The notes: generated from the letters alone by a model not told the origin. 64,000 bases of DNA from Candidatus Omnitrophota bacterium (GCA_018822885.1 JAHJJA010000047.1:5384-69383); one strand, 5' to 3'. Numbered from the stretch's first letter, positions 4,753 through 45,107 are shown. Translations and numbers: made by a program.

Positions 4753-4985
4753 GCCGATGTAGCTTAAGCCCCGAAAGGCGCTTCGTGCATTCGGGTCCCG
4801 ACTTACGACATTAGATGTCGTTTGGTCGGAACGTCGGGATTGGTAGATTGGTGGTAGGATTATCATATGCCGATGTAGCTCAGCCCCGACGCTCGCTTAC
4901 GCTCGGTCGGGGTCCCGACTTCCGACACTAGATGTCGTTTGGTCGGAACGTCGGGATTGGTAGATTGGTGGTAGGATTATCATAT
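4753..4985 (+). repeat. Two tandem ~116-nt structured repeat units abutting tRNA-Thr, each starting with a copy of the tRNA's first 15 nt
   Basis: Unit 1 is 4753-4868 and unit 2 is 4869-4985. Both begin GCCGATGTAGCT(T/C)A, matching the tRNA-Thr 5' end. Each has a GC-clamped hairpin (CCCGAA-N14-TTCGGG in unit 1, CCCCGAC-GCTCGCTTACGCTCG-GTCGGGG in unit 2) whose stem changes are compensatory. A second hairpin TCCCGAC-N30-GTCGGGA follows in both. Confidence 0.7.
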
Positions 4986-5058
4986 GCCGATGTAGCTCAG
5001 TTGGTAGAGCAGCGCTTTCGTAAAGCGCGGGCCGGAGGTTCGATCCCTCTCATCGGCT
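4986..5058 (+). tRNA. tRNA-Thr (anticodon CGT)
   Basis: Acceptor GCCGATG/CATCGGC, D arm GCTC-AGTTGGTA-GAGC, anticodon stem GCGCT/AGCGC with loop TTCGTAA, T arm GGAGG-TTCGATC-CCTCT. CCA not encoded. Confidence 0.85.
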
Positions 5059-16400: not shown

Positions 16401-16735
16401 CGCGGGGTGGAGCAGCCTGGTAGCTCGCAAGGCTCAATGTCTCGCCTATACATGTATGGGCGTACGATGGGCTATTCAGCCGGTAACGGCTGAAGGATAG
16501 TCGGTCAAATTCGGTGAAGCCCGAAAGGGTAATACCGAGCCAAGCCTGCGCAGTTTTGCTTTGCAAAACGAAGCAGCACAGGAAGGTGTAGAGACTAAAC
16601 GGCCGAGACCCTTCTTAAGGAAGGGCCAAGATATAGTCCAGACTACGAATTTGCCAGAGTAGCGGCAAAGCGGCGAAAGCCGAAGTAGTATGCATAACCT
16701 TGAGGTCATGCGTTCAAATCGCATCCCCGCAACCA
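16401..16735 (+). tRNA. Initiator tRNA-fMet (CAT) interrupted by a group I intron in the anticodon loop
   Basis: Exon 1 (16401-16434) is CGCGGGGTGGAGCAGCCTGGTAGCTCGCAAGGCT, with C1 mispaired against A72, A11:U24 and the D arm of bacterial initiator tRNA. Exon 2 (16693-16735) supplies CATAA, CCTTG, AGGTC, the T arm ATGCG-TTCAAAT-CGCAT, CCCCGCA, discriminator A and CCA. Mature loop would be CUCAUAA. Confidence 0.8.
16435..16692 (+). ncRNA. Group I intron (IC3-like), 258 nt, no ORF
   Basis: It follows exon U33 and ends in G. It contains P7-P8-P7'-like AGACTAAACGGCC...CCCTTCTTAAGGAAGGG...GGCCAAGATATAGTCC. It also contains GTCAAATTCGGTGAAGCC, CCGAGCCAAGC and GAAGGTGTAGAGACTA, which I recognise from the Azoarcus tRNA-Ile and cyanobacterial tRNA introns. 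Many GNRA-type hairpins are present. Confidence 0.7.
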
Positions 16736-25240: not shown

Positions 25241-25269
25241 GGCAGGATGACCGCAAGTTCATATTTGCC

Positions 25270-25389
25270 CGGTAGTGTCCCGCCGTAGTATTGGGTAGCA
25301 AGCGGGATCCCGACCGAGCGTAAGCGAGCGTCGGGATAATGGTAGCACAGGGCGGCCTCGCAAAGTATGAGGAACTTAGAATTTAGATT
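25270..25389 (+). repeat. tRNA-Gln-flanking structured repeat, copy A (upstream)
   Basis: It contains CCCGC-N18-GCGGG, then a TCCCGAC-CGAGCGTAAGCGAGC-GTCGGGA hairpin. The loop is the reverse complement of the unit-2 loop at 4891-4905. Confidence 0.65.
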
Positions 25390-25460
25390 TGGGATGTCGT
25401 CCAATGGGAGGACACGAGAATTTGGGTCTCGCTATCATGGTTCGAATCCATGCGTCCCAA
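25390..25460 (+). tRNA. tRNA-Gln (anticodon TTG)
   Basis: U1-A72 acceptor TGGGATG/CGTCCCA, D arm GTCC-AATGGGA-GGAC, anticodon stem CGAGA/TCTCG with loop ATTTGGG, T arm CATGG-TTCGAAT-CCATG. G37 is slightly unusual. Confidence 0.75.
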
Positions 25461-25486
25461 TTTGATAAGATGATTGTCAAGGTTCT

Positions 25487-25590
25487 CCCGCCGTAGTATT
25501 AGGTAGCAAGCGGGATCCCAACTGAACGCAATAGAAGTTGGGAATCCTTGCCGGGCAACGGTCGATTTCAGACGTCCCAACTAACACAGA
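25487..25590 (+). repeat. tRNA-Gln-flanking structured repeat, copy B (downstream)
   Basis: Same CCCGCCGTAGTATT(A/G)GGTAGCAAGCGGGAT head as copy A. The hairpin is TCCCAAC-TGAACGCAATAGAA-GTTGGGA, covarying with copy A. It ends GGTCGATTTCAGACGTCCCAA, a degenerate copy of the tRNA-Gln T-arm and acceptor 3' end. Confidence 0.65.
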
Positions 25591-40049: not shown

Positions 40050-40769
40050 ATGAGGTTTGTATATGGGCCAGTAATTTCACGCAGAATCGGCGTTTCTTTG
40101 GGCATCAGCCTCACTCCTTATAAGATCTGTAATTTCGACTGTATTTATTGCCAGCTGGGCAGGACCAGAGAAAAAACAAATGTAAGGAAGGAATATATTG
40201 CATCCGGGGAGATCATCGACGAGGTAAGGGCATGGATCTCGGCTAATAAGCAGGAGGAGGCCAAGTTAAATTATCTTACTATCTCCGGTTTGGGTGAGCC
40301 TACTTTGAATACAGGGATCGGCCGGATAATCTCCGAAATAAAAAAGATCTCCGGTGTGCCTCTGGCAGTGATTACAAACGCCTCTTATTTAAACGACAAG
40401 GAGGTGCGCAGCTGCCTTTTATCCGCTGATCTGATCGTTCCTTCTTTAGATGCGGCAAGCCAAGAGGTCTTTGAGAAGATCGACCGCCCGTCGGCGGAAG
40501 TAAAATTAAATGATATAATCGAAGGGCTGGTTGATTTAAGAAAAGAATATAGTGGAAAGATCTGGCTTGAGGTGATGTTGGTTTCCGGAGTCAATGATGA
40601 TATCAGGCATATTAAGAAGCTTAAAGAAACCATCGACAGGATCGAGCCTGATAAGATCCAGCTTAATTCACCTGTACGCACGACTAGCGAGGAGAATGTT
40701 TTGCCGGTAGAGAGGGCTAAATTAGAAAAGATCAAAGAGATACTGGGAGATAGGTGTGAGATAGTCTAG
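40050..40769 (+). CDS. Radical SAM domain protein
   Basis: CNFDCIYCQ (CxxxCxxC) near the N-terminus. Start moved to the ATG at 40050 downstream of the terminator. Confidence 0.65.
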   Translation: MRFVYGPVISRRIGVSLGISLTPYKICNFDCIYCQLGRTREKTNVRKEYIASGEIIDEVRAWISANKQEEAKLNYLTISGLGEPTLNTGIGRIISEIKKISGVPLAVITNASYLNDKEVRSCLLSADLIVPSLDAASQEVFEKIDRPSAEVKLNDIIEGLVDLRKEYSGKIWLEVMLVSGVNDDIRHIKKLKETIDRIEPDKIQLNSPVRTTSEENVLPVERAKLEKIKEILGDRCEIV

Positions 40770-40773
40770 CTGC

Positions 40774-40952
40774 TGATTTGGTGCGGGACAAGCGCATCGA
40801 TTATTCGCGCCTGTAGCTTTAGTGAAGCCATAACTTATGGAGCGTAAGCGAACATAAGTTATATGGCTGAACTAATCCCGCACCAATAGGCATTAAACAT
40901 ACTTTATTGATTTGGTGCGGGACAAGCGCATCGATTATTCGCGCCTGTAGCT
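40774..40952 (+). repeat. 134-nt structured repeat unit plus partial second copy fused to the 5' end of tRNA-Arg
   Basis: TGATTTGGTGCGGGACAAGCGCATCGATTATTCGCGCCTGTAGCT occurs at 40774 and again at 40908, where it runs into the tRNA. Inside the unit, TTGGTGCGGGA (40777-40787) and TCCCGCACCAA (40876-40886) flank a hairpin GCCATAACTTATG-GAGCGTAAGCGAA-CATAAGTTATATGGC. Confidence 0.65.
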
Positions 40953-41013
40953 CAATGGATAGAGCGCTAGCCTTCGGAGCTAGGCGTTGGAGGTTCGACT
41001 CCTCCCAGGCGCA
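40941..41013 (+). tRNA. tRNA-Arg (anticodon TCG)
   Basis: Acceptor GCGCCTG/CAGGCGC, D arm GCTC-AATGGATA-GAGC, anticodon stem CTAGC/GCTAG with loop CTTCGGA, T arm GGAGG-TTCGACT-CCTCC. Confidence 0.85.
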
Positions 41014-41028
41014 AGAGGAATTCAAAAA

Positions 41029-41343
41029 ATGAAAAAGTGCCCGTTTTGCGCGGAAGAAATTCAGGATGAAGCGATAAAATGCAGGTATTGCGGCGAGTTG
41101 ATTAACGCCAAAGCCAAGACGCCGTGGTATTTAAAGACTTCTACTTTAATAGTGGCTCTGTTGTGCGTCGGGCCGCTGGCCTTGCCTTTGGTCTGGCTTA
41201 ATCCGCGCTTTTCCAAGAACCTAAAAATAATCATCACATTGATCATAATCATTATAACTTATTATTTCGCTGCCTTGACTATAAATTCAGTCAAGAAGAT
41301 CTCTGATTATTATCAGAAAATGCAGCAGCTTAACTTGTATTGA
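41029..41343 (+). CDS. Zinc-ribbon membrane protein
   Basis: N-terminal CPFC-N14-CRYC zinc ribbon followed by two TM helices. Start moved to the ATG at 41029. Confidence 0.5.
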
Positions 41344-41980: not shown

Positions 41981-42346
41981 ATGTTCAATAGGAAAGGTTT
42001 TACGCTTATCGAGTTGGTCATGGTCATTGTCATCTTAGCTATCCTTGCTATTGTGGCGATCCCGAAGTATTTTGACCTTCAGAATGACGCCAAGGCATCG
42101 GCAGAAAAAGGCGTAGTCGGCGGTGTCAGGTCCGGTGTTTATTCTTACTATGCCCAGTACAAGACATTCCCTGCTGCTCTTGATAACGCTACCGTGGCAG
42201 CTTGTACTTCCACGAATCCGTGTTTTACCAATGTCTTAGGCCAGGGCGGCCTTTATCCGGACTGGACCAAATCAAGCTCTAACACCTATGTCGGTCCTAC
42301 AAACACTACCTATACTTACACCGCGGGTACAGGCGAGTTTAATTAA
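41981..42346 (+). CDS. Type IV pilin / pseudopilin
   Basis: Prepilin N-terminal cleavage/methylation motif GFTLIELVMVIVILAIL. Confidence 0.75.
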   Translation: MFNRKGFTLIELVMVIVILAILAIVAIPKYFDLQNDAKASAEKGVVGGVRSGVYSYYAQYKTFPAALDNATVAACTSTNPCFTNVLGQGGLYPDWTKSSSNTYVGPTNTTYTYTAGTGEFN

Positions 42347-44957: not shown

Positions 44958-45083
44958 CACCCCGCACCTTTTAATTATTCATGTTTTTAAGATTAATAAA
45001 TGAATATTAAAAAGGTGCGGGGTAAGTTCGCACAATAAGTTATGTCGCTTAGATTCTCAAATAGCTGCTCCATAACTTATGTG
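44958..45083. repeat. Long perfect inverted repeat plus a CATAACTTATG-stem hairpin related to the tRNA-Arg-proximal element
   Basis: 44958-45022 is CACCCCGCACCTTTTAATTATTCAT-N16-ATGAATATTAAAAAGGTGCGGGGT. 45031-45083 is CACAATAAGTTATG-TCGCTTAGATTCTCAAATAGCTGCTC-CATAACTTATGTG, whose stem and TCGCTTA loop match the 40828-40865 hairpin in the opposite orientation. Confidence 0.6.
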
Positions 45084-45107
45084 CTCACTTATTATAATCT
45101 AATTTTG

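Follow-up and report, generated by a model that had tools for sequence, protein, structure and literature searches.

What accounts for a second copy of the start of a tRNA gene, set between that gene and the protein gene upstream of it? The question is raised by a 64,000-nt stretch of DNA from a Candidatus Omnitrophota bacterium (GCA_018822885.1, JAHJJA010000047.1:5384-69383; here, at its full length, the window). An exact 45-mer, TGATTTGGTGCGGGACAAGCGCATCGATTATTCGCGCCTGTAGCT, occurs in it at 40774-40818 and again at 40908-40952, 134 nt apart from start to start, and it closes with the first 12 bases of tRNA-Arg(TCG), whose gene lies at 40941-41013. An earlier note on this DNA had reported the repeat correctly and took it for a miniature transposable element with terminal inverted repeats that had duplicated its target, the tRNA 5' end. 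We observed a different anatomy, in which pieces of the two ends of tRNA-Arg enclose a member of a palindromic repeat family. The best explanation, which we hold with moderate confidence, is that a palindromic repeat resembling the REP/BIME elements took the place of the body of a tRNA-Arg gene copy, of which the 134-nt unit is the carcass. The array would then have arisen by local duplication or recombination, and at the RNA level it may form a hairpin-rich leader that is removed by RNase P.

The simplest neutral description of the locus is a truncated unit 0 (33 nt), a unit 1 (134 nt) and the tRNA, with the ends of the unit being tRNA-Arg ends and its interior a palindromic repeat. Positions 40774-40952 hold 1.34 copies of the unit, on the plus strand like all parts given here, between the stop codon of a radical-SAM gene and tRNA-Arg(TCG). 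The stop codon TAG and a CTGC spacer (40767-40773) form the ancestral junction, the point at which tRNA-Arg starts in relatives (in one of them, L069, the spacer is GCTGC). Unit 0 (40774-40806) is identical at 33/33 positions to 40908-40940 and consists of the last 4 nt of the hairpin B loop, the 3' arm of hairpin B (40778-40788), the motif CAAGCGC-A (40789-40796) and the spacer TCGATTATTC (40797-40806). Unit 1 opens with displaced bases 1-12 of tRNA-Arg (40807-40818). Identity to the tRNA ends within the D stem, exactly where hairpin A (57 nt, 40819-40875) sets in, GCGCCTGTAGCT being followed directly by TTAGT. Hairpin B (47 nt, 40876-40922) is made of TCCCGCACCAA, a 25-nt loop and TTGGTGCGGGA, and is followed by CAAGCGC-A and the 10-nt spacer (together 40923-40940). 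CAAGCGC-A itself (40923-40930) repeats 8 nt from the 3' side of tRNA-Arg, namely its acceptor strand and discriminator CAGGCGC-A, with 7/8 positions matching. It pairs with displaced bases 1-7, and the minimum-free-energy fold sets GCGC.CUG against CA.AGCGC. The intact tRNA-Arg(TCG) (40941-41013, 69.9 bits) comes last, and its first 12 nt complete the second 45-mer. As a whole the unit folds at -53.6 kcal/mol, compared to -29.3 +/- 3.6 kcal/mol for shuffles (z = -6.7).

The array is not a one-off assembly artefact, since a contig of a metagenome-assembled genome (MAG) at NCBI (GCA_018824265.1, here L001) equals the window sequence across the entire locus, and the Logan contig L002 does so over the part that it covers, stopping within hairpin A. 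Tandem Repeats Finder did not report the array because its copies are too few. Scanning 40500-41200 for sigma-70 promoters and intrinsic terminators gave no consensus match. The Rfam 15 covariance models matched only tRNAs and one group I intron in the window, as they did, both at gathering thresholds and at E <= 10, across the Arg, Thr and Gln loci of the window and the related loci L034, L035 and L069.

Hairpin A belongs to a strongly covarying family. The copy in the unit has a basal stem P1 (TTAGT/ACTAA), a GA/GA internal loop, P2 (AGCC/GGCT), a 2-nt bulge, P3 (ATAACTTATG/CATAAGTTAT) and, at the tip, the 12-mer apex GAGCGTAAGCGA (40840-40851). The AT-rich hairpin that the earlier note had seen around this apex is real, but its size had been underestimated, P1 being its outer stem. 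Pattern searches found close kin at unrelated intergenic positions in other Omnitrophota loci; nine hairpin A sequences align with 73% column identity, and RNAalifold shows compensatory changes in 9/19 pairs. In the family consensus, a 5-bp basal stem (T-N-A-R-T / A-Y-T-N-A) is followed by a symmetric GA/GA internal loop, a 4-bp stem (RSSC/GSSY), a 2-nt bulge, the near-invariant AYAACTTAYG / CRTAAGTTRT and the apex GAGCG...GCGAA. A covariance model, R1, gave 33 matches in 718 kb, representing ~20 distinct elements, all in Omnitrophota-like loci, and zero matches in the DNA of other phyla that makes up roughly half of this total. The density is ~20 elements per ~350 kb of Omnitrophota loci, and all of them are intergenic. 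In the R1 alignment 96.4% of the cells are paired and 16/19 pairs change on both sides, which 0/500 shuffles reach; no slid register comes close.

Two of the R1 matches lie in the window. One is the copy at tRNA-Arg (40819-40881, 86 bits; hairpin A at 40819-40875 scores 86.3 bits, E = 1e-17). The other belongs to a second composite of hairpin A (45017-45091) and hairpin B (44960-45022) on the minus strand at 44960-45091 (53 bits, E = 2e-9). A third copy was found neither in the window, even with filters off, nor in a further 10 kb of the same genome to the right, where there are no tRNAs either. The earlier expectation of a repeated, sporadic family was thus borne out, by the second window copy and the ~20 copies in related Omnitrophota loci. 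The second copy lies away from tRNAs, in a spacer bounded by a DEAD/DSHCT helicase gene on the minus strand and by the plus-strand gene that comes next. One pair of the conserved stem is flipped in this copy from C-G to G-C relative to the copy at tRNA-Arg. Five exact 18-mer matches in viral contigs were taken as chance because the covariance model confirmed none of them. A kink-turn reading of the tandem G.A motifs was dropped, as the bulge geometry misfits. No published description of these elements in Omnitrophota turned up in literature searches.

The inverted 11-mers find their place in the same family. TCCCGCACCAA lies at 40876-40886, and its inverse TTGGTGCGGGA at 40778-40788, one base to the right of where it had been placed, and again at 40912-40922. 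These 11-mers are the arms of hairpin B, which recurs as an internal component of the family: hairpin A also precedes such a hairpin in the second window copy (the same hairpin B stem, with arms CCCCGCACC...GGTGCGGGG) and in relatives. The natural partner of TCCCGCACCAA is the nearer, downstream copy of TTGGTGCGGGA, 25 nt away. They are not terminal: whether the insert is taken as 89 or 134 nt, its ends (TTAGTGAA... on one side, ...CTTTAT or ...GTAGCT on the other) are not inverted repeats. In relatives the full composite runs from hairpin A through a variable TCCC...GGGA hairpin B to TTAAT-TC-GCGC..., which is hairpin A reversed, and opposite-strand pairs of hairpin A enclose hairpin B at L011 5187/5277, L005 2224/2374, L005 4837/4949 and L033 5931/5834. 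Such composites occupy whole intercistronic spacers. The upstream stop codon lies within the basal stem of hairpin A (in 6 cases ending at +2/+3 of the match), and the inverted hairpin A reaches the ribosome-binding site of the next gene. Some copies of hairpin A carry other hairpins within their apex.

Relatives were found by protein-anchored scans with the upstream radical-SAM gene, which gave loci from Candidatus Omnitrophota. Their conserved gene order is radical SAM, tRNA-Arg(TCG), tRNA-Lys(CTT), archease, RtcB, seryl-tRNA synthetase (SerRS) and tRNA-Ser. As the earlier note had suggested looking for, tRNA-Arg sites without an insert exist: tRNA-Arg begins 1-15 nt past the radical-SAM stop codon in 20/34 related loci, and in the remaining 14/34 the distance is 54-1109 nt. 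The 33 non-tRNA bases of the 45-mer, the whole of unit 0, are absent from all 20 empty sites, so the 45-mer is not the target duplication for which it had been taken. At two loci (L041 6336-6410 and L042 6723-6797), ARAGORN calls a tRNA-Pro(TGG), 2 nt past the radical-SAM stop codon, at the position that tRNA-Arg(TCG) holds in all other relatives. The window and L001 (JAHJGW010000142.1) are 99.87% identical over 7071 nt and then diverge abruptly, at window position 42346 and L001 position 7071; beyond this point L001 carries tRNA-Lys, archease, RtcB and SerRS, and the window unrelated genes. The break reflects either structural variation or a chimera formed in one of the two assemblies.

Displaced tRNA starts are not confined to tRNA-Arg. 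We searched 400 nt on either side of 68 tRNA calls for the first 12 nt of each tRNA, allowing <=1 mismatch; the calls include some redundancy, as L001 repeats the window Arg locus and L041 and L042 are near-identical. Upstream copies in direct orientation accompany 14/68 calls (12 distinct loci), with ~0.1 expected by chance, and the same scan gave zero downstream and zero inverted copies. The fragments usually start at tRNA -2 to +1. Their far boundary lies at bases 12-18, within the D arm or the D loop, in all but a few cases, where it falls in the anticodon loop. Standard ARAGORN calls four tRNAs in the window: Phe (915-989), Thr (4986-5058), Gln (25389-25461) and Arg(TCG). Two tandem units of 117 nt each, forming a 91-nt repeat at 98% identity, precede tRNA-Thr at 4753-4985 (+), with tRNA starts at 4753 and 4869. 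Each unit consists of bases 1-12/15, CCCGAC-type hairpins, TTGGTAGA (tRNA bases 16-23) and a tail; since the flanks are bases 1-15 and TTGGTAGA, the ~75-nt hairpin block separates exactly base 15 of a tRNA-Thr copy from base 16. tRNA-Gln has a hairpin pair on both sides (25262-25580, +; TCCCGCC..GCGGGA plus TCCCGAC/TCCCAAC), and the block at 25512-25580 is a decayed full-length tRNA-Gln copy (score 29.5 vs 17.4 +/- 3.1, 0/300 shuffles). In L069, a 44-nt CCCGAC hairpin stands between CTCAA and TTGG in the D loop of a tRNA-Arg 5' half, and the corresponding half in L034 has no hairpin. All CCCGAC...GTCGGG hairpins in 806 kb sit in D-loop sites of tRNA copies.

The apex of hairpin A links these loci, as the earlier note had pointed out: GAGCGTAAGCGA recurs exactly 5' of tRNA-Gln at 25316-25327 (+) and 5' of tRNA-Thr at 4893-4904 (-), where it lies inverted in the second unit, and any given 12-mer is expected by chance in ~0.008 exact copies over 64 kb on both strands. 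That tRNA loci are systematically affected therefore stood up, but membership of a single family did not, as hairpin A has nothing but the 12-nt apex in common with the Thr and Gln hairpins, whose stems are of the CCCGAC type and which do not match the hairpin A model.

Several further structures were seen next to tRNA genes. A second module type, made of tRNA bases 1-14, a short covarying hairpin and the invariant GGATTTCGC, lies 5' of tRNA-Lys or tRNA-Arg in at least 6 genomes (L001 7475-7640, L010 6854-6981, L034 7097-7162, L043 5141-5200, L082 2722-2785, L038 1093-1148 and L030 326-386). Its hairpin stems include TCCCC/GGGGA, TCCCGC/GCGGGA and TCCTTG/CAAGGA, and in the Lys cases it is followed by GCTAATGG, which is complementary to the tRNA 5' end. 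In the window, a perfect 15-bp hairpin (CAAGACCCGATCTTA ... TAAGATCGGGTCTTG, 855-903, +) ends 11 nt 5' of tRNA-Phe; it has no copy of the tRNA 5' end, and its sequence is unrelated to the other hairpins. A tRNA-Met(CAT) at 16401-16735 (+), missed by the standard scan and seen only in ARAGORN intron mode, contains a 258-nt group I intron in its anticodon loop (RF00028 at 16438-16657, 58 bits). Two other interpretations were discarded: D-loop hairpins as bulge-helix-bulge (BHB) introns, because the flanks form a continuous helix, and the TTTCGC motif as a promoter, because its spacing to tRNA +1 ranges from 22 to 35 nt.

In this lineage, palindromic hairpins have landed repeatedly in those parts of tRNA gene copies that encode loops (D loop and anticodon loop), as well as at the apices of other hairpins. 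This repeated landing suggests an insertion process that is based on single-stranded DNA and seeks hairpin loops, and it is the reason why we read the 134-nt unit as a tRNA-Arg carcass. The ends of a tRNA-Arg copy would have survived while bases 13-65 were replaced by the repeat. Local duplication or unequal recombination might then have produced the array, with the intact last copy being the working gene. Upon transcription, the array could form the hairpin-rich 5' leader of a radical-SAM/tRNA co-transcript that RNase P would cut at tRNA +1.

Several observations weigh against this explanation. The presumed starting state, a tandem pair of intact tRNA-Arg genes, was seen in 0/34 related loci. 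Beyond the 12 and 8 nt at its ends, the likeness of the unit to tRNA-Arg has an alignment score at chance, RF00005 does not match 40774-40940 (there is no recognisable cloverleaf), and an 8-nt match to the tRNA 3' end would occur somewhere in the unit by chance with p ~0.05. Copy density in the source genome is low (2 in ~74 kb). Hairpin A is conserved across genomes with only ~60% protein identity, which could mean a function at the RNA level rather than selfish spread. The perfect identity of the two 45-mer copies requires a recent duplication or gene conversion, and a further deletion must be assumed because 1.34 copies are unlike a simple tandem duplication. Housekeeping genes account for all 10 open reading frames (ORFs) checked in the window, which come from the minus strand and from the surroundings of the tRNA loci; no transposase, RAYT or recombinase was among them, nor was one linked to the repeat family. 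As origins of the 45-mer copies we considered simple tandem duplication, unequal crossover at a TAGCT microhomology and snap-back synthesis, none of which gives the observed order without an extra deletion.

The array might alternatively be a scar of site-specific integration, which we regard as possible but rather unlikely. A small non-autonomous element whose attP-like end carries the 5' part of the tRNA (+1 to the D loop) would recombine in the D arm, so that the host 5' fragment would remain to the left and a complete tRNA be restored to the right, and repeated integration would build the array. An intact gene with a direct displaced fragment is indeed a known hallmark of integration into tRNA genes (PMC4383910; PMC9897764). 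The cleanest duplications run from tRNA -2/+1 to the D loop (L038 15 nt, L030 17, L003 16, L041 17, L001 14), and in L038, L034 and L069 the upstream fragment holds the ancestral position directly past the stop codon. L082 offers both a 16-nt tRNA-Lys fragment followed by ~200 nt, a 224-aa ORF and the full tRNA-Lys, and, 2.4 kb downstream of its intact tRNA-Arg (105-178), a tRNA-Arg 3' fragment (GGTTCAACCCCTGCCAGGCGTA, ~2640-2665), the classical scar of an integrated island. However, the supposed element in the window is 122 nt long and non-coding, and known integrases are reported (Williams 2002) to leave displaced 3' fragments and to act at the anticodon or T loop. Moreover, 33 nt of element-like sequence stand before the first displaced 12-mer of the window and so keep it off the ancestral position, no integrase is found among the 10 window ORFs, and the tRNA-Lys-adjacent ORF has no recombinase or nuclease fold. 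A slightly more doubtful alternative, judged from sequence, is that the unit is a functional structured RNA, that is, a selected 5' leader or small RNA. It might be a tRNA-like minihelix processed by RNase P, with the acceptor-like stem set on hairpin B, or its hairpins might stabilise or regulate the radical-SAM/tRNA transcript. The very stable fold, the strong covariation of hairpin A including its basal stem, the conserved tandem G.A motifs and the persistence of the family between such divergent genomes would all fit, as would the second module type and the ability of the displaced 12-mer to pair with CAAGCGC, followed by a discriminator-like A. Nevertheless, that acceptor-like stem carries a C.A mismatch, no Rfam family matches, and most relatives have no insert at all between the stop codon and tRNA-Arg. 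The Thr apex is inverted, and a single spacer can hold family copies in both orientations, which favours palindromes acting at the DNA level.

The remaining two explanations fare worse. A classical miniature inverted-repeat transposable element (MITE) with 11-bp terminal inverted repeats, inserted in the tRNA 5' region with a 45-bp target-site duplication, would explain why a direct repeat flanks an insert that holds inverted 11-mers, why the family is repeated and why empty sites exist. We consider it very improbable, as 33/45 of the duplicated bases are absent from all empty sites and the 11-mers lie off the insert ends, one of them inside the supposed duplication, with the pairing partner being the nearer copy that forms hairpin B as in other family members; in addition, duplications at other loci range from 12 to >90 nt. 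As for a false partial duplication created by assembly or chimerism, the repeats are short and the window departs abruptly from L001 1.3 kb downstream. Yet the MAG contig is identical over the whole locus and the independent Logan contig over its covered part, and analogous structures occur in many unrelated assemblies, which leaves this option with a negligible chance.

Repeats of the REP/BIME/REPIN type are mobilised by RAYT tyrosine transposases, which are Y1 HUH transposases. A cognate transposase, which the earlier note had proposed to look for, did not turn up among the 10 ORFs in or near the window, and no cas gene was present among the ORFs checked. In relatives, a gene for a ~230-aa protein lies directly 5' of tRNA-Lys(CTT) and always ends inside the tRNA-Lys start, even in a different genomic context (L034 7193-7891, L030 1255-1776, L082 3001-3675, L085 3001-3786), with truncated tRNA-Lys 5' fragments upstream of it. 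The protein has 783 homologues, many of them on ~1 kb contigs, and no Pfam domain. Its confidently predicted structure (predicted local distance difference test, pLDDT, 84) combines an N-terminal helix-turn-helix (HTH) with an alpha/beta domain and matches only HTH DNA-binding domains; a recombinase or nuclease fold was not found in this ORF. The protein is at present no more than a candidate for the enzyme. The idea of a GTAG motif and a RAYT was set aside, as 'GTAG' is just tRNA bases 7-10 and is missing in the Lys and other Arg cases. Elsewhere in L082, from 4290 onward, the RtcB gene encodes an 897-aa product with faint Pfam matches to intein-splicing and LAGLIDADG_3 domains, which suggests an intein.

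Three related loci carry a more elaborate arrangement. In L034 (6721-6983), L035 (3601-3997) and L069 (545-1031), a complete, different tRNA-Arg(TCG) is nested in a split tRNA-Arg(TCG). The layout runs from the 5' half up to the anticodon loop through ~60 nt, the inner tRNA-Arg(TCG) and ~50 nt to the matching 3' half; the inner tRNA is framed by two arms that form an imperfect inverted repeat of ~35 nt, and L069 has three stacked 3' modules. Ribozyme and intron families of Rfam gave no match in these three loci. We take the nested loci to be DNA insertions that brought in a replacement tRNA. More broadly, Omnitrophota may harbour undescribed mobile DNA that is specific to tRNA genes and seeks hairpin loops, comprising D-loop palindromes and ~190-nt cassettes with ~35-nt imperfect inverted repeats that bring a replacement tRNA-Arg into the anticodon loop of the resident gene, with the window unit as a non-autonomous relic. 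This is a speculative proposal, to which we give a small chance. In its most radical form, the split outer tRNAs may still be used, as the outer halves are still perfectly complementary, L035 shows a compensatory change in the split anticodon stem relative to L034, and RtcB and archease are encoded next door. If this were true, it would imply a pathway of RNA-level excision and ligation in bacteria.

Comparison with known systems supports a mixture of familiar parts. REP, BIME and REPIN elements are extragenic palindromes that occur in both orientations and in mosaic clusters (PMC3116915, PMC3337134). The Omnitrophota family resembles them in its short imperfect palindromes, its extragenic or intra-operon location, its dispersed copies in both orientations, its alternating composites with conserved linkers and its lineage-specific sequence. 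It differs in having no GTAG-type flanking tetranucleotide (the flanks being T-N-A-R-T GA ... GA A-Y-T-N-A) and no RAYT among the window ORFs checked, in a basal stem that embeds the upstream stop codon and covaries, in a sequence conserved across very divergent genomes, and in hairpins that nest in tRNA loops and in the apices of other hairpins. tRNA fragments displaced by integrases likewise show an intact tRNA with a direct partial copy, a sharp boundary in a stem-loop and possible arrays (PMC4383910, PMC9897764), whereas here it is the 5' end that is copied, with a boundary in the D arm (base 12/13 in the window), an 'island' of 45-122 nt and no integrase seen. Bacterial MITEs such as Correia/CREE, ERIC, RPE and Nezha are also small, non-coding, structured, repeated and polymorphic in presence, but in our case there are no terminal inverted repeats at the ends and no fixed short target duplication, and the 45-mer is mostly non-target sequence.

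Extra hairpins in tRNA loops are shared with the disrupted tRNAs of archaea (non-canonical BHB introns in D and T loops, and split tRNAs) and with bacterial group I introns, and the halves of the L034 type, separated by complementary flanks with RtcB and archease nearby in relatives, add to this likeness. Here, in contrast, an intact tRNA is always present, inspection shows no bulge-helix-bulge (there are no 3-nt bulges), no group I or other ribozyme matches at the element (Rfam, E <= 10), and the window fragments lack the rest of the tRNA. Intervening sequences of rRNA are similar in being sporadic hairpin insertions at the helix tips of stable-RNA genes; they sit in functional genes and are excised by RNase III, whereas the hosts seen here appear to be dead copies. 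Unlike in CRISPR or casposon-like arrays, the 'spacers' are homologous hairpin modules, and neither Tandem Repeats Finder nor a repeat scan detected such an array.

In conclusion, the ingredients of this locus, interspersed palindromic repeats and displaced tRNA fragments, are known, and what is unusual is their affinity for tRNA loops. Interspersed palindromic repeats have been studied mostly in Proteobacteria, and the present work adds a well-defined, strongly covarying family from an uncultivated phylum, with the unusual habits of taking stop codons into its basal stem and of nesting in the loops of hairpins and tRNA arms. The covariance model and simple rules (an upstream 5' fragment with a D-loop boundary) make the question testable on complete Omnitrophota genomes. 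The findings bear on tRNA annotation in MAGs, in which calls on fragments and split genes may be wrong, and on assembly breaks at such repeats. They suggest that the tRNA genes of Omnitrophota are recurrent targets of small structured DNA, which bears in turn on how essential single-copy tRNA genes survive under invasion.

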